Source: Halomicronema hongdechloris C2206 (lineage in GTDB: Bacteria; Cyanobacteriota; Cyanobacteriia; Phormidesmidales; Phormidesmidaceae). Taken from it: a stretch of DNA of 32,000 nt. The notes under the pieces are model-generated. The model had not been told where the DNA came from. It saw nothing but the letters and a program-made list of their open reading frames with translations, and ran no database searches. Below are positions 14,314 to 29,006 of the stretch, piece by piece (the stretch's first letter is position 1; every line of letters begins with the position of its first letter). The stretch spans positions 3,870,001-3,902,000 of the forward strand of contig NZ_CP021983.2 of assembly GCF_002075285.3 (NCBI RefSeq), written 5' to 3'. The position numbers and the translations under genes are program-made.

Positions 14314-15234
14314 CTACCAATAACTGTTCGTTGCCATCAGTAGCCAGACGCCTCGCTGCGTCTGATGACCCCCTAGTTCAGCATTTATTGGCAAAGAGGG
14401 CGGGTAGCGCTCGGGACACACCCGCTGGGGTTGATAAATCTCAGCCTGCCAGCCATAGGCGGCCAATAGCGGCCGGGGATCGTCACAGCCCCAGCGCCAA
14501 TGGCGAATCACCCGCCCCCGATCCTGGTGTCGAGCTCGGCCAGCTGCGGCCAGCGATCCCAGGGTGACTTCATCCAGGCCCAGCTGGCTCTCAGGGGCAC
14601 TCAGGTCTGATATGGCCTGTAATACCGCCTGCAGAGAGGACTCTGGCAGGTACATGGCTACCCCTTCCAGCAGCCATAGGGTAGGTCGCTCCCGCTGGTA
14701 CCCTGCTCGTATCAGCGAGGTGATCCAGTGGCTGGCGGATTCCTCCAGATCGGCATCAATCAGGTGGTGGTCACAGGCGGGCGGCACCGGCCGCAGCATG
14801 GCAGTCTTGTAATTCAGCACCAGGGCATGATCTACCTCATAGAGCTGAGTACCAGCGGGCCAGGTGAGTCGCTAGGCCCTGGTATCGAGACCCGCCCCCA
14901 GAATCACCACCTGGGGAGTACGGCCCTGATGGCAGCTAGCCTGCAGCCAGGCATCAAAGAAATAGGTGCGGATAGCCACATAGCGAGTTCGCTTGCGGAT
15001 AACCTCTGACAGGGGCCGTTGTTGTCGCTGGGCAGTGGCTTGCCATTGAGTCAGCAGGGCGTCGACCTCATGGCCGGCCAGACAAGTGGCATAGGGATCC
15101 TGAAATAGAGCAGGCTGGTGGGTTTGCTCAAAGATGCGCTTAGCCGCCACAATGCGAGCGGTGTAGGGAACGGGAGTGTGCGGCAGTAGGGACACAGCAG
15201 AGCAACGAAGTGTCAAATCAATAGAGGGGGACAC
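14314..15234 (-). pseudogene. SAM-dependent (Leu carboxyl/O-methyltransferase-like) methyltransferase interrupted by one in-frame TAG
   Basis: Track ORFs 14872..15234 and 14314..14820 share a frame. Read through, the junction gives '[34 protein letters not shown]'. The TAG at 14872-14874 sits where this family has Tyr ('[11 protein letters not shown]'). Confidence 0.75.
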
Positions 15235-15438
15235 TATCTCATGGTTGCCCTAGTTTAATTGTCTTGGCAATCATCTATGGTCGGCGCTTTAATGGCCCTT
15301 AGAGCAACTCCCCTGGGTCTCCCATGGCGGAACAGACTATCCTGGCTGCCTTGACTCCTAGCTTGCCAGCCCTCAGCTGACGAGTCAGCCCCTTGGGCTC
15401 GAGGCTCCAGTGTCAACGACATCCATTCCATTCGGCCC

Positions 15439-15894
15439 ATGTCCGCCAGCGAACGCCTGCAGTTGATTCAAACCTTGAACCAACTGCCTGCCAGTCAATT
15501 TGAGGAACTCGTCATCGCCCTCAATCCGCCCGCGGGGATCTTGCCGCCTAATGTCGCTGCCCAAGGGCCGCGCCTCAGAGCTACTACACTGGGCCGAGGG
15601 ACCGACGGACCCCAATTGCCCCAATTGCAAGCCATTTTGCAGCAGCTGTTGCCGGCTGATCAGTCGTTTCTAGATGGCGACAATCCGACCCGGCGTCGAT
15701 GCCGTCCACCGGGCAGCTGTCTGTCTCAAGCGACGCTTTTACGAGCGCCAAAAGCTCAGTTAGAGGCGGCCCTGGCGGCGGTTGAGGCAGATTTAGAGAC
15801 GGCACCGCGGCAAGTCGATCGCCTGCGTCTGGAAAAGGAGGCTGAACAGCTGTTGGACAAGATAGAGGCGCTGGATAATACCCTCAATGGCTAG
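15439..15894 (+). CDS. Small adaptor-like protein: N-terminal helical module (effector-associated-domain-like) plus C-terminal coiled coil
   Basis: The N-terminal 'ERLQLIQTLNQLPASQFEELVIALNPPAGILPPNVAAQG' parallels the C-terminus of the TIR protein (24589-24810). The C-terminal 'QLEAALAAVEADLETAPRQVDRLRLEKEAEQLLDKIEALD' parallels the N-terminus of the next gene. It contains an out-of-frame stretch (see findings). Confidence 0.6.
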   Translation: MSASERLQLIQTLNQLPASQFEELVIALNPPAGILPPNVAAQGPRLRATTLGRGTDGPQLPQLQAILQQLLPADQSFLDGDNPTRRRCRPPGSCLSQATLLRAPKAQLEAALAAVEADLETAPRQVDRLRLEKEAEQLLDKIEALDNTLNG

Positions 15895-15966
15895 GAGCAT
15901 ACACAGCACTGGTTAAGGGACTATGATGCAGCTCAATAGTCTAGGGACTCAGATTAACGCTCAATA

Positions 15967-16998
15967 GTGGTAGATCAGAAACAGCGACGACGAGACTTCT
16001 ACACTAAACAGCTGGCCCAGCTAGAGGAAGAACTGGCTGCGGTGGAGTCTGATCTGGAGACGGCGGCTGGGGAGCGGGAGCGATTACGGCTGACGAAAGC
16101 CGCTGAGAGACTACTGGATCAGATCGATGAGCTAGAGGATAAGTTAGCTGCCTGTGATGCTGAGGCATCGGAGCCGGGGATACGCGATCGCAACTTCGAG
16201 AAGGCCCTGCAAAAAATCAACTTCACCCAAGCCAAAGACACCGCCGCCCGCCTCCGCCAGAAGCTTAACCAGCAGGGGGGAGTCGCGCTATTCTTCCTGC
16301 AGGGCAGCAAGCTGCAGATGGGCCACTTCTGCCTAGAAGAGGTGTTGCAGGTGATCTTGAGAGATCACATGATCGATGGTCAGGTGGTCGGAGCCTACCG
16401 CCGCATCTGCGTAGATCTCAACTCCACCATCTCCCAACTCAATGAAACCGAGTTTTTGATGCGGCTGGCCAGCTATTTCAATCTCGACCTAGCTGCCTCG
16501 TCAGACGACAACCTTTTATGCGAACAGATTCACGCCCAGATTCGCACCTCCATTGGCACTGGCACTACCCTTTTTCTAGAGATCAAGAGTCTAGATGAGC
16601 TGCTGGAGCGAGAAACGTTCCTAAAATGGTTTATCCAAGATTTCTGGCAGCCCCTGAGCGAGGAGGTTGCCGTGGCCTCCCAAGACGTCAAGAGCAAATT
16701 CATCGTGGCCCTGATCGCCGACAGCCAAATCCTATCCGACCATACCTCCCCCCAGTATCCCCAAGACGTTTTCTGCCAGGGAGACCGCCTCGACAGCGAC
16801 AAGATCATCAACCTGCCCCTACCCAACTGGTCCGTTGACGACATTCAGACCTGGCTAGTCCGATTTCACCCCCTGTTGCCAAAGCTGCAGCAACAGCAAA
16901 AGACCGCCCTAACCCGAATGGCCAAGCAGATCCACAGAAACAGCGGCAACGGCATTCCCCAGAGCGTGTGCATTAACCTCCAGGAGCTATTTCAATGA
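15967..16998 (+). CDS. Coiled coil plus STAND-like domain with a degenerate P-loop (iSTAND-like); function unknown
   Basis: The 343-aa ORF starts at a GTG directly after a TAA. Its N-terminal coiled coil, 'QLAQLEEELAAVESDLETAAGERERLRLTKAAERLLDQIDELEDKL', is followed by 'GGVALFFLQGSKLQMGHFCLEEVL'. That sits where NTPases have GxxxxGK[ST], but there is no Lys-Ser/Thr. The stop overlaps the MoxR ATG (ATGA at 16995-16998). Confidence 0.6.
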   Translation: MVDQKQRRRDFYTKQLAQLEEELAAVESDLETAAGERERLRLTKAAERLLDQIDELEDKLAACDAEASEPGIRDRNFEKALQKINFTQAKDTAARLRQKLNQQGGVALFFLQGSKLQMGHFCLEEVLQVILRDHMIDGQVVGAYRRICVDLNSTISQLNETEFLMRLASYFNLDLAASSDDNLLCEQIHAQIRTSIGTGTTLFLEIKSLDELLERETFLKWFIQDFWQPLSEEVAVASQDVKSKFIVALIADSQILSDHTSPQYPQDVFCQGDRLDSDKIINLPLPNWSVDDIQTWLVRFHPLLPKLQQQQKTALTRMAKQIHRNSGNGIPQSVCINLQELFQ

Positions 16999-17975
16999 CT
17001 GCAGCCGAGCGCCTGACATTCCACGGGGATGGACGTGCCCCCACCGCTCCCCATCCGGACTCTCCAGAGGTACCGGAACCCTATCTGGTGTCTCAGCCCC
17101 TGCAGAAAGCCGTCAATCTGGCCATCTTCCTGAGACGCCCCCTCTTGCTGGAAGGAGATGCCGGCTGTGGCAAGACCCGTCTGGCCTACAGCGTGGCCTA
17201 CGAACTGGGGCTGCCCCTCTACCGCTGGGACGTGCGCTCTAGTACCAAGGCCCAGGATGGGCTGTATGAGTACGACGCGATTCTGCGGCTCCACGATGTG
17301 GAAGTGCAGAAAGTCCAGGGCGCCCACCCTGCCACCCTTGATAACCCCCCAGACGAGGACGCGATCTCCCCGGAGCGTCGCCACCCCGGCAATCCCAAAC
17401 ACTATCGCCGGTTCGGCCCCTTGGGCAACGCCTTTCGCCTGCGAGATCGCCCCGCTGTCGTCTTGATTGACGAGATCGACAAGGCCGATCTGGACTTTCC
17501 CAACGATTTGCTGACGGTGTTAGATGACCCCTGGCAATTCACCATCCGCGAGACTGGCGAAACCATTACGGCTCACCCAGAGCACAAGCCCATCGTCATC
17601 ATCACCAGCAATAAGGAGAAGGGCAACCTACCGGCCCCCTTTCTGCGGCGCTGCCTATATCGGTATCTAGACTTTCCCGATAGCCCCGAACAACTGCAGG
17701 AAATCGTGCGGCGCCACTATCAACATCGCCAGCAGACGACCCCGGCAGACCCGTTGGTGACGGCCGCCGCCGATAAATTTCTCAGTCAGCGGCGGCAGCG
17801 CAACTGGTTTAAGCCCCCCGGCACCAGTGAATTTCTAGATTGGCTAAAAGCCTTGCACCAATTTGAGGCCAAGCCCTATAGCGTGGCCCAACTGCAGCAG
17901 GATACAATTTTGCCCTATCGAGAAGTGCTGTTTAAGCGCCAAGATGATTGGCGTAACTCGACCCAGGCATCATGA
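16995..17975 (+). CDS. MoxR-like AAA+ ATPase
   Basis: It has Walker A 'GDAGCGKT' (17154-17177), Walker B 'VVLIDEIDKAD', sensor-1 'IVIITSN' and 'PAPFLRRC'. The size of 326 aa and the downstream vWA partner are typical of MoxR. Confidence 0.88.
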   Translation: MTAAERLTFHGDGRAPTAPHPDSPEVPEPYLVSQPLQKAVNLAIFLRRPLLLEGDAGCGKTRLAYSVAYELGLPLYRWDVRSSTKAQDGLYEYDAILRLHDVEVQKVQGAHPATLDNPPDEDAISPERRHPGNPKHYRRFGPLGNAFRLRDRPAVVLIDEIDKADLDFPNDLLTVLDDPWQFTIRETGETITAHPEHKPIVIITSNKEKGNLPAPFLRRCLYRYLDFPDSPEQLQEIVRRHYQHRQQTTPADPLVTAAADKFLSQRRQRNWFKPPGTSEFLDWLKALHQFEAKPYSVAQLQQDTILPYREVLFKRQDDWRNSTQAS

Positions 17976-19072
17976 CCGCATTCGATCCCCAAGCGCTGGT
18001 GTTGCGTACCTTTCTGCAGTTGCGTCGCAGCAATTTCAAGCTGGGGGTGGCAGACTACATGGCCGCCCTGGACGCCGTTGCCGGCGGCTTCGGTGAGGAT
18101 TTAGCCAGCCTGGAAGACACCCTGAAGCTGTTGTGGTGCCACTCGTTGAGTGAGCACAGCCAGTTCCAGCCCATCTGGCAGTCAGTGCACCGTCAAGTCA
18201 AGGCCAACCGCCAACCCAAGCCCCCCTTCCCCGGAGGACGCGAGGCCCCCTCCCGACCCCAAGAGACGGTCCCAGCCAGGCACCAGGCGTCAGAGCCACC
18301 GATGCTCCAACCGCAACCGCCGCCGCCCCCGCCCCGGCGAGCCGCCCTAGGCTCCCTGCCGGTGCAGGCCCCCAGCTTACTCAGCGGCGAAGAAGACACC
18401 ATACCCCTGCAGGCCTACTATCCGATTTCACGGCGGTCCATGGTGTATAACTGGCGCTATCTGCGCCGCCCGGTGGCCGATGGCCCTCAGGATGTGTTGG
18501 ATATCGATGCCACCATCCAGCAAGTGACCCGCCAGGGATTCTATCTGGCCCCCGTCTATGGCCGGCGAGAACGCAATCAGGCCCGATTGCTGTTATTCAT
18601 CGATCACGATGGCTCCATGACGCCGTTTCACCAGTTCACCGGGGACCTGGTGGAGACCGCCCAGCAAGAGAGCCCCCTGGATGCCGAGAACGTCAACGCC
18701 GTCTATTTTCAGAATGTGCCGGCGGGGACTGTCTTTCGCGATGTCTACTTGACCCAATCGATGCCCTTGGCCGCCGCCCTGGGTAGCTGTGACCCCACCA
18801 CCAGCGTGCTCATCGTCAGCGACGGTGGCGCCGCCCGGGGCTATCGTCTGCGAGACCGGGTGCGGAGCACCAGCCGATTTCTGCTGCAGCTGAAACGCCA
18901 TACCAGCCTGGTGGCCTGGCTCAACCCCATGCCAAGGCGGCGCTGGGTGGGAAGCTCCGCCGAAATCATCGCCCACTCAGTCCCCATGTTTCAGATGGAT
19001 AGCGACGGACTCAATAACGCCATTGATGTGGTGCGGGGGCAGCCCCTGAAGCACACCTACTCGGCATCTTGA
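17972..19072 (+). CDS. vWA (von Willebrand factor A, CoxE-like) domain protein
   Basis: Its ATG overlaps the MoxR stop (ATGA). After a helical N-terminus and a Pro-rich linker comes 'LLLFIDHDGSMTPF' (MIDAS-like DxDGS, 18602-18619), then '...VLIVSDGGA'. It has the usual position 3' of MoxR. Confidence 0.8.
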   Translation: MTAFDPQALVLRTFLQLRRSNFKLGVADYMAALDAVAGGFGEDLASLEDTLKLLWCHSLSEHSQFQPIWQSVHRQVKANRQPKPPFPGGREAPSRPQETVPARHQASEPPMLQPQPPPPPPRRAALGSLPVQAPSLLSGEEDTIPLQAYYPISRRSMVYNWRYLRRPVADGPQDVLDIDATIQQVTRQGFYLAPVYGRRERNQARLLLFIDHDGSMTPFHQFTGDLVETAQQESPLDAENVNAVYFQNVPAGTVFRDVYLTQSMPLAAALGSCDPTTSVLIVSDGGAARGYRLRDRVRSTSRFLLQLKRHTSLVAWLNPMPRRRWVGSSAEIIAHSVPMFQMDSDGLNNAIDVVRGQPLKHTYSAS

Positions 19073-20709
19073 CCATGGCCGCCGCCCCCTCCCCATGGCC
19101 GGAACCCGCCGACAGGGTGGACCAGTTTGTGGCTCGCTTTGGCAATGAGGCCTATCGCTCCCTGGCCTACCATGCCGCCTTGCCCCTGGTGCTGACGCCG
19201 GAACTGGTGCATTACCTGCGGATTCAATGTTTGCGAGCAGACCATGTGCCCTGGGAAGCCGAGGTGGATCTGCTGCTGTCTGACCTCTGCCGCCAGGTGG
19301 GCTATGAGCTTTACACCATGGATACCCAAGTGCGGGCATACCTGCTGGCCGAAATTAAAGACGACCCGGTCTGGCAACATCGCCTGCAGGAAGTGGCCCA
19401 GGTATTGATCAGCTATGTCAGCTATTTGAGCCGCGTCGATCCCCAGCGTCGCCCAAGAGAGCTAGAGGCGCAACGACTGGCCGCCATGACCTACCTGGGA
19501 GATGAGCACTGCCAGGCAGCCGTGCAAGACATCGGCCATCGCTTCCAGCACTTGGCAGATCAGGCCAGGGCGGAGGGAGCATCAGACCAGAGCATCCGGG
19601 CGGAGCTGGCCTATCTGAGCCGTATCACTCAGGAACTGGCCCCCCAACTGACACGGCACCCAGAGCTGGTGGAGCTGGCCCAGCTGGTGCAACGACTACT
19701 GCGCCACCCAGAGGCGGTGACCCCCGCCGACAGGGCGCGCACATTTCGGGTGGGAGACGCTGACATCCGCCCCAGTGTCTTTCCCTTGAGATTCTCCTCT
19801 GGGGAAGACGAAACCACCCCGACGGGGATGCCCCCTTTAAGGACGCTGGAGTTTGAGACAGGCCAGTTCGTTCAGCCAGAGGCGGGGGTACCTGCCTTAG
19901 AGGCGCAAACGGTGGAGGTGGTGACCCTGGAGTTTGAGGAGGCCAATACAGATTCAGGCCCTATCTCAGGAGAGCCAACATTAGTTTTGGGAGTGTATGG
20001 ATGGGATAAAGTAAGCGAGACCAAGACACCAAATGTGGAGTTAGACTGGCAAGAATACTGCGATCGTACTACCCGCCAAGTTCCAACTCCAGATACGTGG
20101 GATAGCATTCTATTTCCGCAGTTGCAGCAAGCAAAACAAACTCTGATTCAGATATCCTCCTCCCGATACATTTACCTCTTGGGAAATTGCCCCCTCACCA
20201 TGAGTCTGGCCATTGGTTTTACATTTCCTTACGTGGCTGGATATAAGTTTCGTTTGAAGCAATTCACTGGCGGGGAAATGGCCTTTTGGGAGTCTTCTGC
20301 CTCCCCCTCTGAAGCCCAACTTGAGGTCATTCAAGAACAGGGCACAGGAGGAAGCAACCTTATCTTTGCCATTGGGATCAGCGTAAGCATATGGAAGGAT
20401 GTGCAGCAGTTTCAGGAGAGGAATCAAGACCAATTCAATGCTTTAGTGTATGCTGAGCCAAAACAAGGGACAGGACAACGAACTTTAAAATCTGATAAAG
20501 ATGCTGTGGCATTGGCACTTCATGCCAAGGAGCTGATGCATCTATGTCGTCAAAAATATGAAGCGGAAAGCATTCATCTTATTTTTGCTTGCCCAGCAGC
20601 CTTCTCCTTATTCCTAGGGCAGCGACTCAACGCCTTGGGATTGATTATGGCTTATGAACGAACTCAGGATGGCAGCTATCAAATCTCGGTAATACTGAGA
20701 ACAGGCTAA
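19069..20709 (+). CDS. vWA-MoxR-associated protein: helical N-terminal domain plus C-terminal SAVED-like (tandem CARF-like) domain
   Basis: The start is a TTG at 19069 overlapping the vWA stop, or an ATG at 19075. The N-terminus reads 'FVARFGNEAYRSLAYHAALPLVLTPELVHYLRIQCL...PWEAEVDLLLSDLCRQVGYELYTMD'. From about aa 302 (19972) there are two alpha/beta halves, each with a 'hhhhG.CP...SLhhG' element: 'IYLLGNCPLTMSLAIGFTF' and 'IHLIFACPAAFSLFLGQRLN'. The C-terminal 'YER...GSY' resembles SAVED domains. This is by-eye assignment only. Confidence 0.6.
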   Translation: MTMAAAPSPWPEPADRVDQFVARFGNEAYRSLAYHAALPLVLTPELVHYLRIQCLRADHVPWEAEVDLLLSDLCRQVGYELYTMDTQVRAYLLAEIKDDPVWQHRLQEVAQVLISYVSYLSRVDPQRRPRELEAQRLAAMTYLGDEHCQAAVQDIGHRFQHLADQARAEGASDQSIRAELAYLSRITQELAPQLTRHPELVELAQLVQRLLRHPEAVTPADRARTFRVGDADIRPSVFPLRFSSGEDETTPTGMPPLRTLEFETGQFVQPEAGVPALEAQTVEVVTLEFEEANTDSGPISGEPTLVLGVYGWDKVSETKTPNVELDWQEYCDRTTRQVPTPDTWDSILFPQLQQAKQTLIQISSSRYIYLLGNCPLTMSLAIGFTFPYVAGYKFRLKQFTGGEMAFWESSASPSEAQLEVIQEQGTGGSNLIFAIGISVSIWKDVQQFQERNQDQFNALVYAEPKQGTGQRTLKSDKDAVALALHAKELMHLCRQKYEAESIHLIFACPAAFSLFLGQRLNALGLIMAYERTQDGSYQISVILRTG

Positions 20710-20739
20710 TTCTAATTCCTCCTAATCAATCCTGACACT

Positions 20740-21057
20740 TCAATGGGTGTCACTGCGTTTGCTGTCCTCTTGCGACGGGGACTCATCTTTCCAGGGTTCA
20801 ATGGCCCTGAAGAGATACTCTCCGGCGGGGGTGCGTGTCATCCGTATCACGTACTGCCCACCGACAGCTATGCCAGACTTTGTAGGGCTATGGATGTGGA
20901 AGGCAAAGGTCTGACCAGAGAACTGCCCTGCCATGACGGCATCAACGTCTAGGACGGCCACCCACTTCAAGTGCGGGTGGGGACTGCGCTGTGGCCTTAG
21001 CGCGGTGATGACACCACGCAGCACCACATCTTCGTCATTGTTGTTATTGTCTGACAT
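20740..21057 (-). CDS. Small hypothetical protein (105 aa), possible partner or immunity protein of the upstream DUF4157 protein
   Basis: The ATG is preceded by a GAGAGGA-type RBS. It lies 131 nt downstream of 21189..22439 on the same strand and looks beta-rich. I do not recognise the family. Confidence 0.45.
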   Translation of the reverse strand: MSDNNNNDEDVVLRGVITALRPQRSPHPHLKWVAVLDVDAVMAGQFSGQTFAFHIHSPTKSGIAVGGQYVIRMTRTPAGEYLFRAIEPWKDESPSQEDSKRSDTH

Positions 21058-21188
21058 AGTGGGGTCCTCTCACGCTACCAGGGACTGCTCCATGGTGCCA
21101 GGAAGGTGACGGTGGATAGAAGACAGGGTCGGCGCATAGACAGCATCGGGTCCCACAGCTTTAGTAGAGCAACCGATAAGGTTCAAGG

Positions 21189-22439
21189 CTACGGACAGAT
21201 ACGATTCAGGGCAGCCAGGGCGGCTTGCAAAAACCGACGCTCCCAGCGGTAAGAATTCACCTCGTCCTGGGCCCAGTCGTGGCCGTCCTGCCACTGGGCT
21301 TCGAAGGCTGCTACTTCAGCGGGGAAGGTAGCCCGCAGGGTATCTAGCCGATTGGGGACTCCTGCCAGCCGCTTCCACTCGCGGAAGAAAGCTGATCCTT
21401 GAGCCCGCGCGATGTCATTCGTATGGCGAGCATGCATGGTCTCATGGACGAAGGTAGCTTTGTCATCGATGCGCTGGCAGGGATCAGCCGATGGCGGTGG
21501 TAGCGTAATTGTGCCACTGGCACTGGTGGAGCCAGCTACGGTAGTACCGGGATGGGCAGCATCGAAGCAGGCTTCAACATCAACGTTGGTCGGATTGGCC
21601 GGAACGTCACAGGCGGCATAGGTCGCCGCTGCAGTATTGGCCCAATTAATTCCATCCCGCACCTGCTGGCGGCATCCACACATACTGTGTGTGACGGGTA
21701 GTCCCCAGACTCTCTCGCTAGTAGGCGGCGATGGGGACTGTCGTTGGATTCTATGGCTGGATCCCTGGGCTGCCGGTTCAATCCTGTGGTCTCCATGCCT
21801 GGCAAGAGCACCACCTTGCTGCACAACATGGGCCAATTCATGGGCCATCAAAAAACGGGCACGTCCACTTCCTGAAGATAATCGGTCGTTATCCAAGACA
21901 ACGTGCTGGCCCACTGTATACCCCTGCGCATTGATCGCTTGTGCTGACTCTGCCGCTTTCGCATCCGTGTGCACTCGCACTTGGCTGAAATCATGCCCAA
22001 AACGTGGCTCCATAAAGCTGCGGGTGTGGGCATCCAGGGGCTGGCCGGGTGAGCGCAATACTTCGTGGACGATGGGCAGTGCTGAAATCTGTTCCTCGTT
22101 GTTCGACTGAAGGCGCCGCAGTTGTAGGCGCATTGGTTTCTGCTCCGGTCGCTGTGCCTGACACTGGGGACAGCCACCACCACAGGCACAGGTGCGCTGC
22201 AGCTTGGGATCAGGCATGCGAATCACTTGGTTCGCAACACGATCTGCCTCCTGTTCATAGATGTCTCCAGGCTGGTCGATCGTGAGTTTCGTCTGTAGTG
22301 CTCCTGGATGTGGACGATGACACTGCGGGGGCAACTCATGCCGCTGGATCCGACTGGATATCGTAGGCTTGATCGCAGGCTTGGCAGATGTAATCTGCTG
22401 AGTTGCCCTTGATTTCTGTGCAAAAGTACCCATGGCCAA
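21189..22439 (-). CDS. DUF4157 (eCIS-core-type, zincin-like) domain protein with an unknown Cys-containing C-terminal domain that carries a second HExxH
   Basis: 'DIYEQEADRVANQV', 'LQRTCACGGGCPQC' and 'VHEVLRSPGQPLDAHTRSFMEPRFGHDFSQVRVHTDAKAAESAQAINAQGYTVGQHVVL...LMAHELAHVVQQ' form the canonical DUF4157 signature, with HELAH at 21828-21842. A second 'HETMH' lies at 21432-21446. Confidence 0.85.
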   Translation of the reverse strand: MAMGTFAQKSRATQQITSAKPAIKPTISSRIQRHELPPQCHRPHPGALQTKLTIDQPGDIYEQEADRVANQVIRMPDPKLQRTCACGGGCPQCQAQRPEQKPMRLQLRRLQSNNEEQISALPIVHEVLRSPGQPLDAHTRSFMEPRFGHDFSQVRVHTDAKAAESAQAINAQGYTVGQHVVLDNDRLSSGSGRARFLMAHELAHVVQQGGALARHGDHRIEPAAQGSSHRIQRQSPSPPTSERVWGLPVTHSMCGCRQQVRDGINWANTAAATYAACDVPANPTNVDVEACFDAAHPGTTVAGSTSASGTITLPPPSADPCQRIDDKATFVHETMHARHTNDIARAQGSAFFREWKRLAGVPNRLDTLRATFPAEVAAFEAQWQDGHDWAQDEVNSYRWERRFLQAALAALNRICP

Positions 22440-22569: not shown

Positions 22570-23070
22570 TTGGGTTCTGAGGTTCCTAACCGTTGGAGGT
22601 TTAAGGTTTGCGTCATGGCTTCTTGCTCACCGACTATGGGGAATCACCGTGGGGCAATCCCAAGCGATAGACGGGGCCAACCCCCAGGGCATCGGCCCGA
22701 TAGATCTAGCTCCGGGTATAGCGGGAGATGGCCCATGTATCGTGGGTCGTGCGATATTGTTATGCCAGGCAAATCCATTGATACCATTGGGTTTTAGTAT
22801 GAGCCCGGAGCGTGGGTCGTGTTGCGGGCATAGGATAACCAGTTGTCGCCTGGGAAATGACCCGCGCTCCCCCGTGGGATGGCCATTGATTGTATGAGGG
22901 ATACCCCATGGATGGCGGGGTGGGGTGTGCGATCGCATCATGGCCATAAATCTGTTGGCACGTGTTGCCCGGAGCATGGGGCCTTTCGGGGCCGGGGGAT
23001 AACTAGTTGTCGAGTGGGCAATGACCCACGCTCCGATGTGGGATACCTTATCAGTAACCCATTGCCTCCC
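22570..23070 (+). pseudogene. Tentative: several decayed fragments of the C-terminal tail of FGE-sulfatase domains (no intact ORF)
   Basis: Stitching + strand frames gives three tail-like pieces: 'YRGSCDIVMPGKSIDTIGF*' (ends 22797), 'PGAWVVLRA*DNQLSPG/NDPRSPVGWPLIV' (about 22806-22897), and 'VLPGAWGLS...DN*LS/CRVGNDPRSDVGYLIS' (about 22965-23056). They are comparable with the family tail 'RGGSW...CRSAYR...P..R...IGFRVV'. Units two and three are recognisably repeated at the DNA level, 164 nt apart. Confidence 0.35.
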
Positions 23071-23079: not shown

Positions 23080-23579
23080 GTGGTAGAGCTGATACTCCGT
23101 AAAGAGCGTAAACGAGCTCGCTATTTTACCGAATCCCTGGGCGATCAGATTGGCCTGGATATGATATTGGTACCCGGCGGCACGTTCCTGATGGGTTCGC
23201 CAGAGGATGAGCCTGAGCGGATTGACCGCGAGGGACCACAGCATCAGGTGACGGTGCCTGCTTTTTTCATGGGGCGATATCCGGTGACCCAGGCTCAGTG
23301 GTAGGCAGTGGCCGCACTGCCTCAGGAATCGCGGCAACTAACTCCAAATCCTTCTAGGTTCAAGGGAGACAGTCGCCCGGTTGAGCAAGTCTCCTGGTAC
23401 GACGCAGTGGAGTTTTGCGATCGCATCAGCCGTCATACTGGTCGCGCCTATCGGCTACCCAGCAAAGCCGAGTGGGAATATGCCTGTCGAGCCGGCACAG
23501 CCGCTCTGCCTATCGCTACAGCGATGATCCCCATGGAGCCTTCAATGATATTGGGTTTCGGGTGGTGTGTGTTGCCTGA
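23080..23579 (+). pseudogene. FGE-sulfatase (formylglycine-generating-enzyme-like) domain gene with an in-frame TAG and an internal deletion or frameshift
   Basis: 'LDMILVPGGTFLMGSPEDEPERIDREGPQHQVTVPAFFMGRYPVTQAQW' is followed by a TAG at 23302-23304. It continues in frame as '[51 protein letters not shown]'. From about 23502 the family tail '[25 protein letters not shown]' is in another frame, so the middle of the domain is missing. Confidence 0.75.
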
Positions 23580-23769
23580 AGTGCGATCGCAACATTCTCG
23601 GCTTGGCGGCAGACATGAGCACTCCTCTCTGGTTTCTAGCCAACCATTGCCAAGGGCCTGAGCATAACTGAGCGAAGGTGCGATCGCACCATTGCTGAAA
23701 ACCCACCAGCAGTATGGCACCCCCCTTAGCAGCTGAGTAAGATGGGGACAACATCCCCCCACCGCTGCC

Positions 23770-24813
23770 GTGAAAGACTTTTTCATCAGTTACAACAGCG
23801 CCGATAAAGCCTGGGCTGAGTGGCTTGCCTGGGTGTTAGAGGAAAACGGATATACAGTAATCATTCAAGCCTGGGACTTTCGCCCTGGCGGCAACTTCAT
23901 TATCGACATGCAGCGAGCGGCAGACGAGTCGACGCGCACCATCATGGTGCTCTCCGAGGTCTATCTGCAAGCCAAGTACACCCAGCCGGAGTGGGCTGCG
24001 GCATTCAAACAAGATCCTGAATCCCAGGAACATAGGCTGATTCCTATCCGAGTTGCACCCTGTCAGCCGACCGGAATGTTGGCACCGCTGGTCTATGTGG
24101 ACTTAGTTGGCAAAAGCGAAGCCGATGCCGAAGCATCCGTGCTGGCCTCCTTGCAAAACCGAGCTAAGCCAGCGACGCGCCCCAGCTTTCCTGGAAAGAC
24201 TCCGGGTGAGGAGCGAGTTGTCAAGAAAAAAGTTCCATTCCCGCCTGGAAGGTCAATTCGAGTGACTTGGCAACTTGTGCTTGACTATCAGCTTGAGAAT
24301 ACCTTTTTTGATCACGGTCGTGATATTGACAGGGTGGTTGATCGGTTGAAGCAACTCTCTGGAGATCAGCGCCTAGAGGATGTGGATAGAGTGTGCAAAA
24401 ACGGCAGCACCTTCCTGACGCTTAAAGGAACAGAGGAGGGGCTGAGGAAGCTTCAAGCACTTTCTGAAACAGGACAGTTGGCTGAGATAAACGGAATACA
24501 AGTCGAACAAATCAACTTACCGCCTGACTCCTCTCAAACACCGCCGATAACGCAGAATCCTCCAATGACGAATGAATCGACGACGCTGACACCGCGAGAG
24601 CGCTTAGCCTTGAATCGTAAGATTACCGGGCTTACGACTCAGTCGTTTAACGAGTTGTTGCTACTGCTTGAACCGCCTGATGGAATAGTGCCGCCACCAA
24701 CTGCACCTCAGGGCGATCGTACCTATGCCTTGCTGAGTTGGGCGCGAAGTACCACCGGCTGTGGCCTGGCCGCCGTGCGCGATGCCTTCAACGAGATTGC
24801 CCCTTCCCCTTAG
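23770..24813 (+). CDS. TIR domain protein with a central unknown module and a C-terminal helical adaptor (effector-associated-domain-like) module
   Basis: After a GTG start, 'KDFFISYNSADKAWAEWLAWVLEENGYTVIIQAWDFRPGGNFIIDMQRAADESTRTIMVLSEVYLQAKYTQPEWAAAF...LIPIRV' is a bacterial TIR_2-type domain. The C-terminal 74 aa (24589-24810) match the N-terminus of the 15439 gene. Confidence 0.85.
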   Translation: MKDFFISYNSADKAWAEWLAWVLEENGYTVIIQAWDFRPGGNFIIDMQRAADESTRTIMVLSEVYLQAKYTQPEWAAAFKQDPESQEHRLIPIRVAPCQPTGMLAPLVYVDLVGKSEADAEASVLASLQNRAKPATRPSFPGKTPGEERVVKKKVPFPPGRSIRVTWQLVLDYQLENTFFDHGRDIDRVVDRLKQLSGDQRLEDVDRVCKNGSTFLTLKGTEEGLRKLQALSETGQLAEINGIQVEQINLPPDSSQTPPITQNPPMTNESTTLTPRERLALNRKITGLTTQSFNELLLLLEPPDGIVPPPTAPQGDRTYALLSWARSTTGCGLAAVRDAFNEIAPSP

Positions 24814-24860
24814 CTGCCTCTTCGGATTCGGATGGCACTGCCCCGGAGAGGCCTTGGCTG

Positions 24861-27214
24861 GTGCCCCTAGACCGCAACCCCTGTTTTACTGGACGAGCGT
24901 CGATACTGGAGCAGATACGTCAGGCGCTCACCGCTAGAGGCACCGCCGGATTAACCCAGGTGCAGGCCATTGCCGGCCTCGGAGGTGTCGGCAAGACCCA
25001 AACCGCTCTGGAATATGCCTATCGCTACTACTGGGATGTAAACAGGGACGAGGCCTATCAGGCGGTCTTCTGGATTCGGTTAGATACAGAGCAAGCGCTT
25101 CAGAGTGGCTTTCAAGAGATCGCTGAAATGCTGATGCTCTGTGAGGCAGCGGTGAAAGAGGCGGACCAGATCGTGCGGGTGGTCAAGACCTGGTTAGCAG
25201 AGCACACAGGCTGGCTGCTGGTGCTAGACAATGCCGATGACCCCAGTTTTATCAGGAATTATCTGCCCAAGCGGGGACAGGGTCATGTGCTGATTACCTC
25301 CCGGGTGCAAGACCTGCAACGCCTGGGGGTGATTCAACCGCTATCGCTGGATGCCCTGAACCCTGAGGAGGCGGTGGCCTTTTTGCTGCAGCGGACAGGC
25401 CGCGAGGCTGCTAGCCAAGCAGCCCAGAGGGCAGCTGAGGCACTATCGGCGGAACTGGGCCATTGCCGTTGGCCCTGGAACAGGCTGGTGCTTACATGGT
25501 CACCACAGGTGCTGGCTTTCAAGACTATCTCGCCAGCTATCGGCATCGCCGTTTGGACCTGCTGAACCAAGCCGCCCCCATCATGGGCGACTATCCCGAT
25601 TCCGTAGCCACTACCTGGAATATCAACGTTGAAGCGATAGCAGCGGAATCTCTGGCAGCTACCGATCTCCTACGGGCCAGTGCCTTTCTCCATGCCGACG
25701 GCATTCCCTACGACCTGATCGTGTCGGGAGCCAGGGAGTTAGGGGAGGCGATTCAGCAGCACCTGGCAGAGGTTGAGAATGACCCCCTGGCCTTTTTGAC
25801 CCTGCTGGAACCCTTGAAGCGATATTCCCTGGTGCGCCCCGAAGCGTCGGAGCAGACCTACAGCGTTCACCGTCTGGTACAGGCTGTGGTGAAGACCAAC
25901 CTGGGGGAAGCGGCTGCCAGACAATGGGCGGAGCGGATCGTGCGGGTGGTGACCCAGGCTTACCCCAATGCCGATGACTTCAACAACTGGCCGGAATGCC
26001 AGCGATTGCTCCTCCACGCCCAGGCGGCAGCAACCGCCGTCCAACACTACCGTTTTGACTTTTCCGAAGCCGGCCTGCTGCTGATTCGGCTGGGATTTTA
26101 TGCCCAAGAGAGAGGGGAATACTCAACCGCTGACCCCCTTTACCTGCAGGGATTAGAGATATATAAAAAAGCCTTGGGCGATGAGCATCCCCATGTGGCC
26201 CTCAGCCTCAACAATCTCGCCTTTCTGTATAAATCGCAGGGCCGCTACGCCGAGGCGGAACCGCTCTATCAGCAGGCCCTGGCCTTGTGGCAACGGCTAT
26301 TGGGCGACGAGCATCCCGATGTGGCCAGCAGCCTCAACAATCTCGCCGCACTGTATGACTCGCAGGGCCGCTACGCCGAGGCGGAACCGCTCTATCAGCA
26401 GGCCCTGGCGTTGCGGCAACGGCTGTTGGGCCAGGAGCATCCCGCTGTGGCCCTCAGCCTCAACAATCTCGCCGCACTGTATCGAGTGCAGGGCCGCTAC
26501 GGGGAGGCGGAACCGCTCTTGCAGCAGGCCCTGGCCTTGCGGCAACGGCTGCTGGGCGACGAGCATCCCGATGTGGCCCTCAGCCTCAACAATCTCGCCT
26601 TACTGTATTATGCGAAGGGCCGCTACGCTGAGGCGGAACCGCTCTATCAGCAGGCCCTGGCGTTGGGTCAACGGCTGTTGGGCCAGGAGCATCCCGCTGT
26701 GGCCCTCAGCCTCAACAATCTCGCCGCACTGTATTATTCGCAGGGGCGCTACGCCGAGGCGGAACCGCTCTATCAGCAGGCCCTGGCGTTGAGGAAACGG
26801 CTATTGGGCGACGAGCATCCCGCTGTGGCCCTCAGCCTCAACAATCTCGCCGCACTGTATCAATCGCAGGGTCGCTACGCCGAGGCGGAACCGCTCTTGC
26901 AACAGGCTTTCCAGATTAGCCGAAACGCTTTAGGAGACAATCATCCCGACGTGGGCATTTGCTTGGGTAATTTAGCCTCCCTGTACGTTGCCCAAGGGCG
27001 TTATTCTGACGCGGAACCGTTGTTTCTAGAGGCGTTGAGCCTCTTTGTGCAGGCTGTAGGGCAAGACCATCCCTACACCACAGAGACGATTAATCGCCTT
27101 GCTAAGTTTGTCAGGACGGTTATTGAAGCAGGCCAGACTCAGCTCCTCTCTGACCATCCCGTCACCCAAGCCCTGCTCCAGCAGCTGCAGTCCCCGTCAG
27201 CCAAGGGCTCGTGA
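24861..27214 (+). pseudogene. NB-ARC (STAND) NTPase with kinesin-light-chain-type TPR array, split by a 1-nt frameshift
   Basis: Frame A reads 'NPCFTGR...IAGLGGVGKTQTALEYA' (Walker A), 'LLVLDNADD' (Walker B) and 'VLITSR', up to 'ALSAELGH'. Frame B continues from 25463 with 'LPLALEQAGAY' and eight 42-aa TPRs. The junction 'GGC CAT TG' (25458-25465) would read G-H-L-P-L-A-L-E with one more T. The start is uncertain: a GTG at 24861, or further upstream where frame A is open from 24738 and overlaps the TIR gene. Confidence 0.8.
26084..27091 (+). repeat. Eight tandem 126-nt units encoding 42-aa TPR_10/12-type repeats, the central ones nearly identical at the DNA level
   Basis: 'NNLAALY.SQGRYAEAEPLYQQALALRQRLLG.EHP.VALSL' recurs every 42 aa. 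Long identical nucleotide runs such as 'ggccgctacgccgaggcggaaccgctctatcagcaggccctggc' occur in several units. Confidence 0.9.
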
Positions 27215-27236
27215 GTGGCCTGTCACCTCGACTCCG

Positions 27237-27338
27237 CTCGGTGAGCGGTTGTGGCTCGGTGACCAGTTGTGGCTCGGTGACCGGTTGTGGCTCGGTGAGC
27301 GGTTGTGGCTCGGTGAGCGGTTGTGGCTCGGTGAGCGG
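27237..27338. repeat. 18-nt tandem repeat 'CTCGGTGAGCGGTTGTGG', about 5.7 copies
   Basis: Units begin at 27237, 27255, 27273, 27291, 27309 and 27327 (the last partial), with variants GACCAG/GACCGG. The array starts 22 nt after the stop of the STAND gene. Confidence 0.9.
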
Positions 27339-27468
27339 CTTGTCCTGAGCTGTGTCGCAGGGAGTCGAACCGAGCCTGTCGACAGTCTTCCCCAAATAGA
27401 ATTCCCAGAGTCGAGGTTACCCTCTACCTGGATTCCGGGTGGCGCTGCGCTTGGGTTCCCCTCCATCC

Positions 27469-27698
27469 CCTAGGAAGTCTACTAAGTACACCCATCTCGG
27501 CCTCACCCCTTCAGTCCCCTCTCCCAAACATGGGCGCAGCTTGCTTCTCGAAGAGTGGGGGAGGCCATACACAGCCTTCCGGCTCCCCTTCTCCCGCTCT
27601 GGGAGTAGACCGAAGGGCGCGCGAAGCAGGAGTTGGGTGATGAGGGAAAAGCTCTAACCGCAAGGGTTTCAGGACTTATGTGTACCTAGTAGCCTAGG
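27469..27698. mobile_element. MITE-like 230-bp element bounded by imperfect inverted repeats
   Basis: The left end is 'CCTAGGAAGTCTACTAAGTACAC' (27469-27491). The right end, 'GTGTACCTAGTAGCCTAGG' (27680-27698), is its imperfect reverse complement. There is no credible ORF inside. Confidence 0.4.
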
Positions 27699-28980: not shown

Positions 28981-29006
28981 GTCGACCCTTGCTTCCCCCT
29001 CTATTC

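Follow-up and report, generated by a model that had tools for sequence, protein, structure and literature searches.

A SAVED domain in place of the output domain of an iSTAND-type vWA-MoxR operon in Halomicronema hongdechloris: a candidate nucleotide-gated assembly switch

An operon of five same-strand genes (g1 to g5, positions 15439-20709) in the cyanobacterium Halomicronema hongdechloris C2206 raises the question of what a MoxR ATPase and a vWA protein may be doing in one unit with a SAVED domain, and whether this unit belongs to any known system. Positions are those of the window, that is, the whole 32,000-nucleotide stretch of DNA that was analyzed. A previous sequence-only reading had placed five ORFs here, the last four of them joined by start/stop overlaps; all five are present on the plus strand, and so are the overlaps, ATGA at 16995-16998 (g2/g3), ATGA at 17972-17975 (g3/g4) and TTGA at 19069-19072 (g4/g5). 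The features of the locus and of its downstream neighbor are:

15439-15894, plus strand: g1, ORF of 151 aa
15566-15613, plus strand: compensated double frameshift in g1; the +1 frame reads RASELLHWAEGPTDP
15967-16998, plus strand: g2, ORF of 343 aa
16995-17975, plus strand: g3, ORF of 326 aa
17972-19072, plus strand: g4, ORF of 366 aa
19069-20709, plus strand: g5, ORF of 546 aa with a TTG start
19069-19950, plus strand: N-terminal half of g5, vWA-L and linker (residues 1-305, 65% identity to P0002)
19951-20709, plus strand: C-terminal half of g5, SAVED (Pfam SAVED PF18145 3.8e-20, NCBIfam 4e-31, PADLOC 2e-67)
23770-27214, plus strand: TIR-STAND neighbor outside the operon, with TIR, TRADD-N-like, mid module, NB-ARC and TPR (Pfam)

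In GenBank, g5 (XM38_036890) is a 544-aa protein starting from the ATG at 19075, 2 bases past the g4 stop. With the TTG start its N-terminus aligns residue for residue with homologues, and the coupling of g4 and g5 is tight whichever start is used.

Judging by its domains and gene order, the operon matches the "vWA-MoxR subsystem 2, iSTAND ternary system", in the version that has vWA-L and effector as a gene of their own. This subsystem of the vWA-MoxR class was described, computationally only, by Kaur et al. 2020 (PMC7159879), and the split vWA / vWA-L form by Kaur et al. 2021 (PMC8195603). The vWA-L gene follows iSTAND, MoxR and vWA genes of its own strand in 53 of the 57 related genomic loci that have enough upstream DNA, so that the arrangement is not due to chance; the full five-gene order recurs in the metagenomic relatives L005-L008. 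The domain profiles and this conserved order bear out the earlier proposal of one coupled unit with a MoxR/vWA switch at its core, and the finding of iSTAND, EAD9 and vWA-L its assignment to the vWA-MoxR conflict class; profile searches of the five proteins likewise confirmed every domain call. The claim that the arrangement cannot be mapped onto a named defense system holds to the extent that no named, tested system matches, but the arrangement itself is that of the iSTAND ternary system, and its novelty had been overstated, since the class was already described in the two studies of Kaur et al. Class membership is thus not what is new; particular to this locus are the SAVED graft, a truncated g1 with frameshifts, and the loss of every enzymatic effector.

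The g1 product consists of a ~70-aa four-helix "mid" module (4 helices in the predicted structure, pLDDT 74-89) followed by a C-terminal EAD9 coiled coil, which agrees with the adaptor and coiled coil read from it before. The mid module has no Pfam family and no significant structural match, and is not a recognized EAD. The EAD9 of g1 scores 21.9 bits in the Pfam profile search, slightly below the cut-off of 25, and shares 61% identity with the EAD9 of g2; g1 and g2 carry a matched EAD9 pair. Over residues 175-322 of the g1 protein of the related locus L008 the identity is 52%, the full-length relative being a 325-aa TIR-mid-EAD9 protein of which only these residues are matched. While the relatives of g1 bear a TIR, CHAT, caspase or trypsin head, g1 has none, and a tblastn search found no TIR remnant at g1: it is a truncated enzyme-mid-EAD9 protein whose enzymatic head has been lost. 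It also carries two frameshifts, an extra G in a GGG run (15565-15567) and a C lost from a C-run (15610-15613), between which the conserved RAxxLLxWxEGP motif is scrambled over 14 codons and after which the frame is restored. When repaired, g1 is 64% identical to the L008 protein over 75 aa and also matches P0277-P0279.

The remaining core genes resemble their L008 counterparts over the full length (55% identity for g2, 77% for g3 and 66% for g4). In Pfam profile searches, g2 combines EAD9 (1.1e-8) with iSTAND PF19995 (4.8e-26). That it is STAND-like and lacks a P-loop, as noticed earlier, is a family trait, the equivalent stretch being variable and GK[ST] occurring in none of 55 loci. The product of g3 is a MoxR-clade AAA+ ATPase (AAA_5/AAA by Pfam) with the intact motifs previously ascribed to it (Walker A GDAGCGKT, Walker B VVLIDEIDK), whose residues are invariant in 64-66 loci; its nearest solved structures in PDB are midasin, NorQ and CbbQ. 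The product of g4 is a vWA protein, also as proposed, and of the CoxE type (VWA_CoxE, 2.3e-9 by Pfam). Its DHDGSM fits a non-canonical metal-site motif, D-x-x-G-S-M. All 73 loci share the D, G, S and M of this motif, and none has the Ser of a canonical MIDAS at its third position.

The g5 protein is chimeric, with a break near residues 291-300. Its N-terminal half comprises the helical linker module of vWA-L (residues ~10-235, helical in the AF2 model) and a disordered linker (~246-300); 115 hits cover this half alone, and it retains 92 of 96 family-conserved positions. In relatives this module bears a variable effector, the C-termini 3' of vWA-L being hypervariable, and 63 of 73 vWA-L ORFs have an FGE-sulfatase-like (FGS) domain at their 3' end. 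The C-terminal half is SAVED, as had been suspected from the letters alone: besides the profile matches, the AlphaFold model has pLDDT >90 across residues 301-546, and its best PDB matches by Foldseek are all SAVED (Cap4, 7yib, 1e-14; TIR-SAVED with cA3, 7qqk), with further matches to SAVED-CHAT and CalpL. The GC content falls from 0.62 to 0.46 at ~19950 and rises back at ~20740, delimiting a foreign segment of 0.79 kb, and GC3 is 0.44 in the SAVED half against 0.71 upstream. The graft is in frame, beginning in the inter-domain linker and stopping at the native stop. The ancestor of g5 had FGS as its output domain; SAVED, on a compositionally foreign segment, took its place. The segment is unameliorated and therefore recent. 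Judging by its model and by the 58 of 61 clade-conserved positions that it retains, the domain looks intact, which is uninformative on selection in this host because the graft is so recent. The sequence-only reading was therefore right about the adaptor in g1 and the SAVED end of g5, but it omitted the truncation and frameshifts of the former and, in the latter, the vWA-L half and the foreign graft replacing FGS.

As to its origin, the SAVED of g5 is 62-67% identical to those of TIR-SAVED effectors, a family that occurs next to type III CRISPR-Cas, the closest relatives being 413-aa TIR-SAVED proteins. All three relatives with enough flanking DNA (L001, L010 and L011) have a Cas10/Cmr2 gene no more than 7 kb from that for TIR-SAVED, accompanied in L001 and L010 by RAMP genes; one further relative, of 46% identity, lies in a type II CBASS operon. 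The exact vWA-L-SAVED fusion was not found in other genomes among ~1.8 billion representative proteins. SAVED has entered iSTAND operons on at least three further, independent occasions, in L093 (vWA-L-4xTIR-SAVED), in L094 (vWA-L-X-SAVED) and in Chloroploca (EAD2-X-SAVED adjoining EAD2-iSTAND). The SAVED domains of these other iSTAND systems belong to unrelated SAVED clades (24-27% identity), and because those of L093 and L094 are so distant from that of g5, their captures are independent of it.

No CD-NTase, cyclase, Cas10 or cas gene occurs among the ORFs of the window, in agreement with what had been said of a cyclase. The TIR-STAND gene, 3 kb downstream of the operon, is spread over three overlapping ORFs in three frames, with apparent frameshifts. 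Its mid module is 35% identical to that of the repaired g1 (E 4e-7), its TIR at 23770 shares 61-71% identity with those of P0032, P0010, P0121 and P0122 (TIR-SAVED family), and it is possibly linked to the operon. Disrupted genes are abundant in this neighborhood and include an FGS pseudogene downstream of the operon (23080-23661) and a split LCM methyltransferase gene. A type III CRISPR system is reported in the H. hongdechloris genome by the genome paper (PMC6416890). With this system and the TIR-STAND gene, the cell does not lack possible sources of a nucleotide signal. In addition, CARF/SAVED has been linked to vWA-MoxR-VMAP near type III CRISPR loci (PMC10910872), and a host-made cyclic dinucleotide can trigger a TIR-SAVED effector that has no cyclase of its own (bioRxiv 10.1101/2025.06.19.660554).

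We consider it somewhat probable, a little better than even, that this is a ternary conflict operon of the iSTAND vWA-MoxR type, working as a cyclic-oligonucleotide-gated, ATP-thresholded assembly switch, a mechanism drawn from comparative genomics and from analogy with NorQ/NorD-type pairs and SAVED effectors. The iSTAND protein (g2), the component that defines the system, is predicted to be the sensor/scaffold, while a MoxR hexamer and its vWA co-chaperone would spend ATP to remodel the complex and set the threshold. The vWA-L-tethered SAVED would bind a cyclic oligonucleotide, most plausibly a cA3-like product of the genome-reported type III CRISPR Cas10 or, alternatively, another cellular cyclic nucleotide. 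By analogy with solved SAVED effectors, the ligand-bound domain would oligomerize head to tail and so might couple nucleotide signaling to assembly of the ternary complex. Since the operon keeps no enzymatic effector (profile searches of the five genes revealed no recognizable effector or signal-generating enzyme), the output would have to be relayed by EAD9 and the mid module, as adaptors, to proteins whose genes lie elsewhere.

A serious rival is a decaying relic, that is, a TIR-EAD9 / iSTAND / MoxR / vWA / vWA-L-FGS system that used to be functional and no longer is, with a SAVED fusion produced by accidental neutral recombination. Neither working end is left, g1 having lost its TIR head and g5 its FGS output; g1 has a double frameshift, the operon contains no effector domain, and the vWA-L-SAVED fusion, unameliorated and hence recent, is unique to this genome; moreover, disruption extends to nearby conflict genes, namely the FGS pseudogene, the TIR-STAND gene in three frames and the split LCM gene. 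On the other hand, g2-g5 are full-length ORFs with every family-conserved motif kept, the second g1 frameshift restores the EAD9 frame, as expected if EAD9 is still needed, the graft runs in frame from linker to native stop, and other lineages recruited SAVED to iSTAND systems independently. We regard decay as unlikely, if still to be reckoned with. A signal sink or brake, in which the tethered SAVED would sequester cyclic oligonucleotides like a sponge or degrade them as a ring nuclease, damping or thresholding type III CRISPR or CBASS signaling, strikes us as improbable. It would account for a SAVED with no fused effector, it agrees with the non-enzymatic, decoy-like effector modules stressed by Kaur et al. 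and the proposed "inactive decoy / dominant-negative" theme for ternary-system effectors, and the closest structural matches include a viral SAVED that stands alone and acts as a ring nuclease (9r8s, E 3e-11, TMt 0.72). The sequence of g5 SAVED, however, is nearest to activating TIR-SAVED sensors and only 15% identical to that viral protein in the structural alignment, and a sponge gives no evident need for an ATPase/vWA/iSTAND machine.

The similarities to TIR-SAVED proteins could also point to a re-wired, split TIR-SAVED, with the SAVED of g5 joined to the downstream TIR by an adaptor chain (vWA-L/vWA/MoxR/iSTAND-EAD9 : EAD9-mid of g1 : mid-TIR-STAND), or sensing a nucleotide made by that TIR. 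Here the TIR and the SAVED resemble the two parts of the same proteins (61-71% and 62-67% identity), the mid module is common to g1 and the TIR-STAND protein, homotypic pairing of neighboring genes is the EAD principle, and TIRs and SAVED stand together behind vWA-L in L093. We know of no precedent for a SAVED sensing a TIR product. Furthermore, the mid module, with neither a Pfam family nor a significant structural match, is no recognized EAD, and in g1 the conserved motif of the module is scrambled; the TIR-STAND gene, read in three frames, may be a pseudogene, and the TIR and SAVED segments, which differ in composition (GC3 0.62 vs 0.44), must have arrived separately. We rate a split effector as quite remote. 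Least credible of all is that the operon is a named nucleotide-signaling defense, be it CBASS or an ancillary module of type III CRISPR, or that it is a MoxR-vWA pair with a housekeeping role in maturation (such as NorQ/NorD, CbbQ/CbbO or CoxD/CoxE), which the gene content already contradicts. PADLOC does match g5 to CBASS SAVED-effector models, NorQ and CbbQ are nearest to g3 among solved structures, and g4 matches VWA_CoxE; but the PADLOC matches span only SAVED residues 301-546 and no PADLOC model hits g1-g4, the window ORFs contain no CD-NTase, Cas10 or cas gene, nor, cbb and cox target genes are absent nearby, and iSTAND, EAD9 and a vWA-L whose C-termini are hypervariable mark conflict systems rather than metalloenzyme maturation.

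To our knowledge, the Esr pathway is the sole experimentally supported case from this group of MoxR-vWA systems. As described in oral Actinobacteria (bioRxiv 10.64898/2026.09.08.750141), it places a MoxR-vWA pair between a variable sensor and an output, like the operon, but it belongs to another subsystem (beta-propeller sensor, kinase/FHA output, Esx secretion) without iSTAND, EAD or SAVED. UAS-55/64/66 (Altae-Tran et al. 2023, PMC10910872), compared here by description only, share with the operon a cyclic-oligonucleotide sensor and a MoxR-vWA ternary core, a combination taken there to suggest multi-protein signaling cascades; they are VMAP-type and lie beside type III CRISPR loci, whereas the operon is iSTAND-type, with no adjoining CRISPR in the window. 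The TIR-SAVED effectors of type III CRISPR-Cas and CBASS (7qqk with cA3; bioRxiv 10.1101/2022.05.04.490601) have the same SAVED fold as g5, but they carry the TIR in the same polypeptide and the contigs of the 413-aa TIR-SAVED proteins contain Cas10/Cmr2, while g5 has no TIR, its window has neither cas genes nor a cyclase, and its SAVED is tethered to vWA-L within a MoxR-vWA operon. SAVED also stands behind vWA-L in the metagenomic contig L093 (P0143, vWA-L-4xTIR-DUF4062-SAVED), with a full TIR-EAD9 / EAD9-iSTAND / MoxR / vWA operon, and L094 (P0163, vWA-L-X-SAVED), a short contig with only a cut vWA gene visible upstream; unlike g5, both retain an effector part between vWA-L and SAVED (four TIRs and a 350-aa X region, respectively), and L093 keeps the TIR on its g1.

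The closest systems are the iSTAND + FGS operons (Kaur, Burroughs, Iyer, Aravind 2020 eLife, PMC7159879; e.g. L008, L005, L013-L019), whose five genes come in the same order and are translationally coupled as well. As here, g1 and the iSTAND protein both bear EAD9, the MoxR is without VMAP-type extensions, the vWA is of the CoxE type and vWA-L has a gene to itself. Identity to L008 is 55-77% for g2, g3, g4 and the vWA-L part. Where these systems put a TIR, CHAT, caspase or trypsin head on g1 and, mostly, FGS behind vWA-L, the H. hongdechloris operon has a headless g1 and SAVED for FGS, and it is only in this headless g1 and in the exchange of its output domain for SAVED that it departs from the known class.

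The sequence-only reading had described five same-strand open reading frames, and we recovered all of them at exactly the coordinates it gave:

15439-15894, + strand: g1, adaptor, 151 aa
15967-16998, + strand: g2, EAD9-iSTAND protein, 343 aa
16995-17975, + strand: g3, MoxR ATPase, 326 aa
17972-19072, + strand: g4, vWA protein, 366 aa
19069-20709, + strand: g5, vWA-L-SAVED protein, 546 aa

The ATGA overlaps at the g2/g3 and g3/g4 junctions are both seen in the sequence, and at the g4/g5 junction a TTG at 19069 overlaps the TGA stop of g4. The g5 product is XM38_036890 (100% identity), for which GenBank places the start at ATG 19075; the TTG start at 19069 gives a residue-for-residue alignment with homologues, and the coupling of g4 and g5 is tight with either start. 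Promoter and terminator scans of 15000-21300 gave counts no different from shuffled expectation.

Profile searches bore out every domain guess made from the sequence. The g2 protein combines an effector-associated adaptor domain, EAD9 (1e-8, 35.1 bits), with an iSTAND domain (PF19995; 4.8e-26, 92.5 bits against a cut-off of 24), and its STAND domain is indeed inactive in the sense proposed, with LQGSKLQMGHF at the P-loop position; the equivalent stretch is variable, and GK[ST] occurs in 0 of 55 loci. The g3 protein matches AAA_5/AAA and has midasin, NorQ and CbbQ, members of the MoxR-type clade whose partners are vWA proteins, as its closest PDB relatives. Its MoxR motifs are intact, as had been read: Walker A (G-[DE]-A-G-C-G-K-T) and Walker B (VVLIDEIDK) are both invariant over 64-66 orthologous loci. 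A direct reading of the g3 N-terminus (residues 1-45) found no tryptophan and no VMAP-type WxhapG / PsWRxa motif. The g4 protein, which has a 4-nt overlap with g3, is a CoxE-type vWA (VWA_CoxE, 2.3e-9) with the metal-site motif D-x-x-G-S-M, in which D, G, S and M are invariant (73 loci). The earlier wording "MIDAS-like" is apt, since the third position is N, E, D or G and the canonical first MIDAS serine occurs in 0 of 73 loci.

This gene content assigns the operon to a class that has been described computationally. The defining traits of iSTAND subsystem 2 are a MoxR protein without VMAP-type extensions, a CoxE-type vWA, an inactive STAND with an N-terminal EAD, and a second EAD on a neighbour gene (PMC7159879). 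All of these pieces are present in g1-g5, the same EAD on the third component and the neighbouring gene being EAD9, at the N-terminus of g2 and in g1. Effectors in these systems are attached through vWA-L, an alpha-helical linker (Kaur et al. 2021, PMC8195603), which together with its effector forms a separate gene beside the vWA gene in a minority of iSTAND systems (PMC8195603); g5 is such a separate adjacent gene with a variable effector. The claim that the operon could not be mapped onto a named system therefore stands with respect to experimentally tested systems and fails otherwise, the operon being the iSTAND vWA-MoxR ternary system of Kaur et al. 2020 (PMC7159879).

Conservation was assessed by scanning a vWA-L alignment against one genome per species, which yielded 80 loci, mostly in filamentous cyanobacteria and also in Chloroflexota, Blastocatellia, Abditibacteriota and proteobacteria. 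The predicted co-occurrence of the genes in other genomes was borne out: iSTAND, MoxR and vWA follow in order on the same strand in 53 of the 57 loci that had 3.4 kb or more of upstream sequence, vWA-L is a separate ORF in every scanned locus, and the five-gene order is also found in metagenomic relatives. The main reference operon, L008, shows the full order TIR-mid-EAD9 / EAD9-iSTAND / MoxR / vWA / vWA-L-FGS with 4-nt overlaps (FGS, FGE-sulfatase-like domain), and its proteins are identical over the full length to g2, g3 and g4 at 55%, 77% and 66%, respectively. Among the complete vWA-L ORFs the C-terminus is FGS in 63 of 73 and SAVED in 0 of 73. One contig (JBCCNE010000001.1, 79,770 bp) carries the same operon twice in opposite orientation with identical match coordinates (L014 and L015), which points to a large inverted duplication or else to a fold-back artefact of assembly.

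The g1 protein corresponds to residues 175-322 only of the L008 TIR-mid-EAD9 protein. It consists of the helical mid module and EAD9, the signalling enzyme on or recruited to the third component being absent, and no TIR remnant was found upstream of it. Its C-terminal EAD9 scores 21.9 bits, slightly below the Pfam cut-off of 25, and is 61% identical over 44 aa to the EAD9 of g2 and 71% identical to that of the L008 equivalent, a copy that passes the cut-off. Enzyme heads found on gene-1 equivalents elsewhere are CHAT (L014), TIR (L021, L023 and, by tblastn, L032), caspase (L038) and trypsin (L037); such a head is frequent in the iSTAND class and not universal, since the 221-aa EAD9 protein at L027 is also without a recognised enzyme. 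Residues 44-57 of g1 (14 codons) are out of frame, and the +1 frame of this stretch reads RASELLHWAEGPTDP, a motif that relatives conserve. Two indels ~45 nt apart, a G added to a GGG run and a C missing from a C-run, account for the 14 scrambled codons, and once both are repaired the identity to L008 rises to 64% over 75 aa. Because both sites are homopolymers the indels may be sequencing errors; if both changes are real, the second would have restored the EAD9 frame. The mid module gave no Pfam match even at E<=10 and only three relatives in a word-indexed protein search. Its AlphaFold2 model is a four-helix bundle, for which a structural search against the PDB returned no significant match; the best local one, the CENP-N N-terminal domain (E 4.6, probability 0.21), was discounted as evidence.

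The most unusual member of the operon is g5, a chimera of two families. Residues 1 to ~291 match vWA-L-FGS proteins (65% identity to the related protein P0002), while residues ~300-546 correspond to the SAVED portion of TIR-SAVED proteins 413 aa long. The N-terminal module (residues 1-295) is 50-65% identical to hundreds of proteins that share only this module; >100 of its homologues sit after vWA genes and have hypervariable C-termini, which in 76 diverse representatives comprise FGS (27), TIR (5), AAA_35, CHAT, caspase and nSTAND (4 each), calcineurin-like phosphoesterase (3), kinase, GUN4 and receiver (2 each) and tubulin (1). The N-terminal half of g5 fits vWA-L, a label taken from its position, architecture and published description rather than from a named profile. 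The C-terminal half matches SAVED in Pfam (PF18145, 3.8e-20), NCBIfam (4e-31) and PADLOC SAVED-effector models (up to 2e-67), with all these matches confined to residues ~300-546. SAVED identity is 62-67% to five related proteins (P0009, P0010, P0012, P0121 and P0032) and 58% to a sixth (P0122), with 96-100% of the domain query covered.

The members of the SAVED family consist of two fused CARF-like halves that form a cyclic-oligonucleotide pocket. In an AlphaFold2 model of g5, computed from a trimmed alignment of the two families, a helical N-terminal domain (10-235) is followed by a disordered linker (246-300) and a SAVED domain (301-546, pLDDT >90). The best 50 PDB matches listed by Foldseek for this model are all SAVED proteins, including Cap4 (7yib, 1e-14), AbCap4 with cyclic trinucleotides, the viral SAVED ring nuclease 9r8s, TIR-SAVED with cA3 (7qqk), Cap5, SAVED-CHAT and CalpL. 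The CARF- or SAVED-like fold that had been suspected from the sequence is thereby upheld by the model; the C-terminal half has both the fold and the family membership of SAVED, with putative ligand binding.

The join of the two halves coincides with a sharp compositional step. The vWA-L part has a GC content of 0.62 and a GC3 of 0.71, and the DNA after ~20740 has a GC content of 0.56-0.59; between them lies

19951-20709, + strand: SAVED part of g5, GC 0.46, GC3 0.44

The grafted segment runs from within the inter-domain linker of TIR-SAVED to the native stop (...RTG). Conserved positions are kept in both parts (58/61 of the SAVED clade in the SAVED part, 92/96 in the vWA-L part). By parsimony, FGS is the ancestral C-terminus of g5, and hence a foreign 0.79-kb segment has taken the place of the FGS-coding end of the gene. 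That an assembly chimera produced the GC step is unlikely, since the join keeps the reading frame, falls within an inter-domain linker and is free of repeats. No flanking repeats or target-site duplications were found around the graft, and a search for a phage source of the segment returned no phage match and plasmid matches of at most 44% identity. Type III CRISPR-Cas genes are found near the closest TIR-SAVED relatives (Cas10/Cmr2 at most 7 kb away in three related contigs, L001, L010 and L011), and a 46%-identical relative belongs to a type II CBASS operon that also has SMODS, E1 and JAB genes.

Among the 150 best matches listed (HMMER, 1.84 billion representative proteins), both halves of g5 are matched by three proteins only: g5 itself, P0143 (1279 aa: vWA-L, four TIRs, DUF4062, SAVED) and P0163 (802 aa: vWA-L, an unassigned region, SAVED). 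SAVED is joined to such systems at other loci as well. L093 is a complete operon, TIR-EAD9 / EAD9-iSTAND / MoxR / vWA / vWA-L-4xTIR-DUF4062-SAVED; L094 has a vWA gene followed by vWA-L-X-SAVED; and in two Chloroploca genomes an iSTAND protein with EAD2 has a nearby gene for EAD2-X-SAVED. The SAVED domains of L093, L094 and Chloroploca are 23-27% identical to that of g5, and the SAVED-iSTAND link has arisen independently in other lineages (three captures). The product of the last gene of L093 (4270-8109, 1279 aa) attaches an entire TIR-SAVED-type effector to the ternary core. In Candidatus Chloroploca the 564-aa EAD2-X-SAVED gene (L071 11659-13353, L073 11375-13069) lies ~0.9 kb downstream of a vWA-L-AAA-FGS gene, its SAVED being recruited through an EAD rather than vWA-L, with a ~270-aa unassigned middle region. 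SAVED has also been placed among the nucleotide-binding domains at the effector position of VMAP systems (Kaur et al. [quoted passage not shown] 2023, PMC10910872).

Several of the genes around the operon are disrupted, and the surroundings contain the following features:

14314-14820 and 14872-15234, - strand: LCM family gene split in two ORFs (profile positions 118-186 and 3-98), directly upstream of g1
20740-21057, - strand: 105-aa ORF without family, native-like GC of 0.56-0.58
21189-22439, - strand: 416-aa eCIS_core/DUF4157 protein with HExxH zincin motif, weak PADLOC capP match (2.5e-4), GC 0.56-0.58
22803-22880 and 22967-23044: two copies (77% identical) of a 78-nt element with inverted-repeat arms CGGAGCGTGGGTC / GACCCACGCTCCG, one per copy
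23080-23661, + strand: pseudogene of a stand-alone 273-aa FGS gene, 67% identical to the orthologues at L009 and L005 from residue 3
23770-27214, + strand: TIR-STAND gene (TIR, TRADD-N-like, mid, NB-ARC, TPR), as overlapping ORFs 23770-24813, 24738-25565 and 25463-27214 in three frames
29692-29774: tRNA-Leu(CAA)

The 105-aa ORF and the eCIS_core gene, both convergent, occupy the place of a 211-aa gene of relatives. The copies of the 78-nt element, which may be a small mobile or repeated element, lie in the spacer upstream of the FGS pseudogene. The latter has an in-frame stop (23305-23307), a ~100 aa internal deletion and a frame change over its last 30 aa. We considered its fragments as the displaced C-terminus of g5 and rejected this, because their alignment to the stand-alone FGS gene located after the operon in relatives begins at residue 3. 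The TIR-STAND gene looks frameshifted. Its mid module is common to g1 (E 4e-7), and its TIR shares 61-71% identity with TIRs from the very TIR-SAVED family whose SAVED is in g5; the GC3 of this TIR is 0.62 against 0.44 for the g5 SAVED, so the two were not acquired together. Further downstream, 27230-30040 is gene-poor, with a short-period tandem repeat at ~27230-27400 (ORF translations read GERLWLG... repeated), a sequence repeated at ~28062 and ~29270 with the same translation, MFSCLKDPHSRHSRGGGNPE, and an overlapping pair of small ORFs (105 aa at 28433-28750, 79 aa at 28741-28980). The position of the tRNA gene indicates that the conflict-gene cluster ends close to it.

Taken together, the parts list, the matching EAD9 domains of g1 and g2, a strongly constrained ATPase, a dead STAND, a SAVED that looks intact and a module swap are established, and they support the earlier reading of the operon as a MoxR-vWA conflict unit. 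How it might act is drawn from published models and solved SAVED effectors. By analogy, the iSTAND protein would sense or scaffold, MoxR and vWA would spend ATP on complex remodelling and set a threshold, and SAVED would bind a cyclic oligonucleotide and oligomerise, which would link nucleotide signalling to assembly. As the operon retains no enzyme, any output must pass via adaptors to proteins encoded elsewhere. The operon could be a working hub that converts a cyclic-oligonucleotide alarm, from type III CRISPR Cas10 or another cellular cyclase, into an ATP-thresholded adaptor assembly, with MoxR, vWA and iSTAND licensing the oligomerisation of vWA-L-SAVED and g1 (EAD9 plus mid) relaying to death-type effectors elsewhere, e.g. 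TIR-STAND; we regard this full scheme as improbable. The window was said to contain no cyclase, and no CD-NTase, Cas10 or cas gene was indeed found among its ORFs; according to the genome paper, type III CRISPR is present elsewhere in the genome (PMC6416890). One TIR-SAVED effector has been shown to respond, without a cyclase of its own, to a cyclic dinucleotide made by the host (bioRxiv 10.1101/2025.06.19.660554), so that the missing local cyclase is not disqualifying.

The main rival explanation is that the operon is a decaying relic, as suggested by the loss of both working ends, the disruption of neighbouring genes and the restriction of the vWA-L-SAVED fusion to this genome; moreover, the graft is too recent for the intactness of its SAVED to indicate selection. 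Two lesser rivals are that the g5 SAVED is a cOA sink or ring nuclease, and that a split TIR-SAVED is re-united by adaptors.

MoxR-vWA ternary systems of the iSTAND and VMAP types occur widely among filamentous bacteria, and to our knowledge no iSTAND-type system has been experimentally studied. The biochemistry of SAVED is well understood with regard to ligand binding and ligand-induced oligomerisation. Being a minimal iSTAND version, with enzymatic head and enzymatic effector both absent and SAVED as the sole added domain, the operon offers a tractable entry to what the MoxR/vWA/iSTAND core does to a vWA-L-borne module. It also represents an effector-cassette exchange caught in progress, a foreign 0.79-kb domain having been grafted exactly at the linker, and this graft with the three independent SAVED captures suggests that cyclic-nucleotide signalling was plugged repeatedly into these systems. 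A working hub would amount to a bacterial counterpart of adaptor-based signalosomes and would wire CRISPR signalling directly to MoxR-vWA conflict systems; a merely decaying operon would have little importance beyond an example of defence-island turnover.

Among the known systems, VMAP ternary systems have a VMAP third component and an extended MoxR, whereas here iSTAND holds the third position and no VMAP family match was obtained for g1-g5 at E<=1; a VMAP reading was rejected on gene content. So was CBASS, which has a CD-NTase (SMODS) with its SAVED effector; the window has none, with no SMODS/CD-NTase match in Pfam or PADLOC among its ORFs of at least 150 aa. In CBASS, moreover, SAVED is fused to a killing domain (nuclease, TIR, TM or protease), whereas the PADLOC effector match of g5 covers only residues 301-546, the rest being vWA-L. 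The TIR-SAVED effectors of type III CRISPR have a SAVED clade in common with g5, but they carry a TIR in the same protein and have cas10/cmr nearby, whereas g5 is without TIR in a 32-kb window without cas genes. Housekeeping pairs such as NorQ/NorD, CbbQ/CbbO and CoxD/CoxE have target metalloenzyme genes in the cluster, and none is found beside this operon, the neighbours of which are miaB, a TPR protein, the LCM methyltransferase pseudogene, the eCIS_core protein, the FGS pseudogene and TIR-STAND; a reading of the NorQD/CoxDE type was likewise rejected on gene content. The NCBIfam names MadB/MadC were set aside, their matches being far below cut-off and the names belonging to unrelated proteins in the literature. 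The novelty initially attributed to the operon was overstated, since the iSTAND ternary class had already been described computationally, and a specialist who knows the comparative-genomics papers of 2020/2021 would find no surprise here. Given that links of SAVED to vWA-MoxR are already in Kaur et al. 2020 and Altae-Tran et al. 2023, the operon is a member of the described, hypervariable iSTAND ternary class rather than a new kind of system, unusual and minimal in its make-up.
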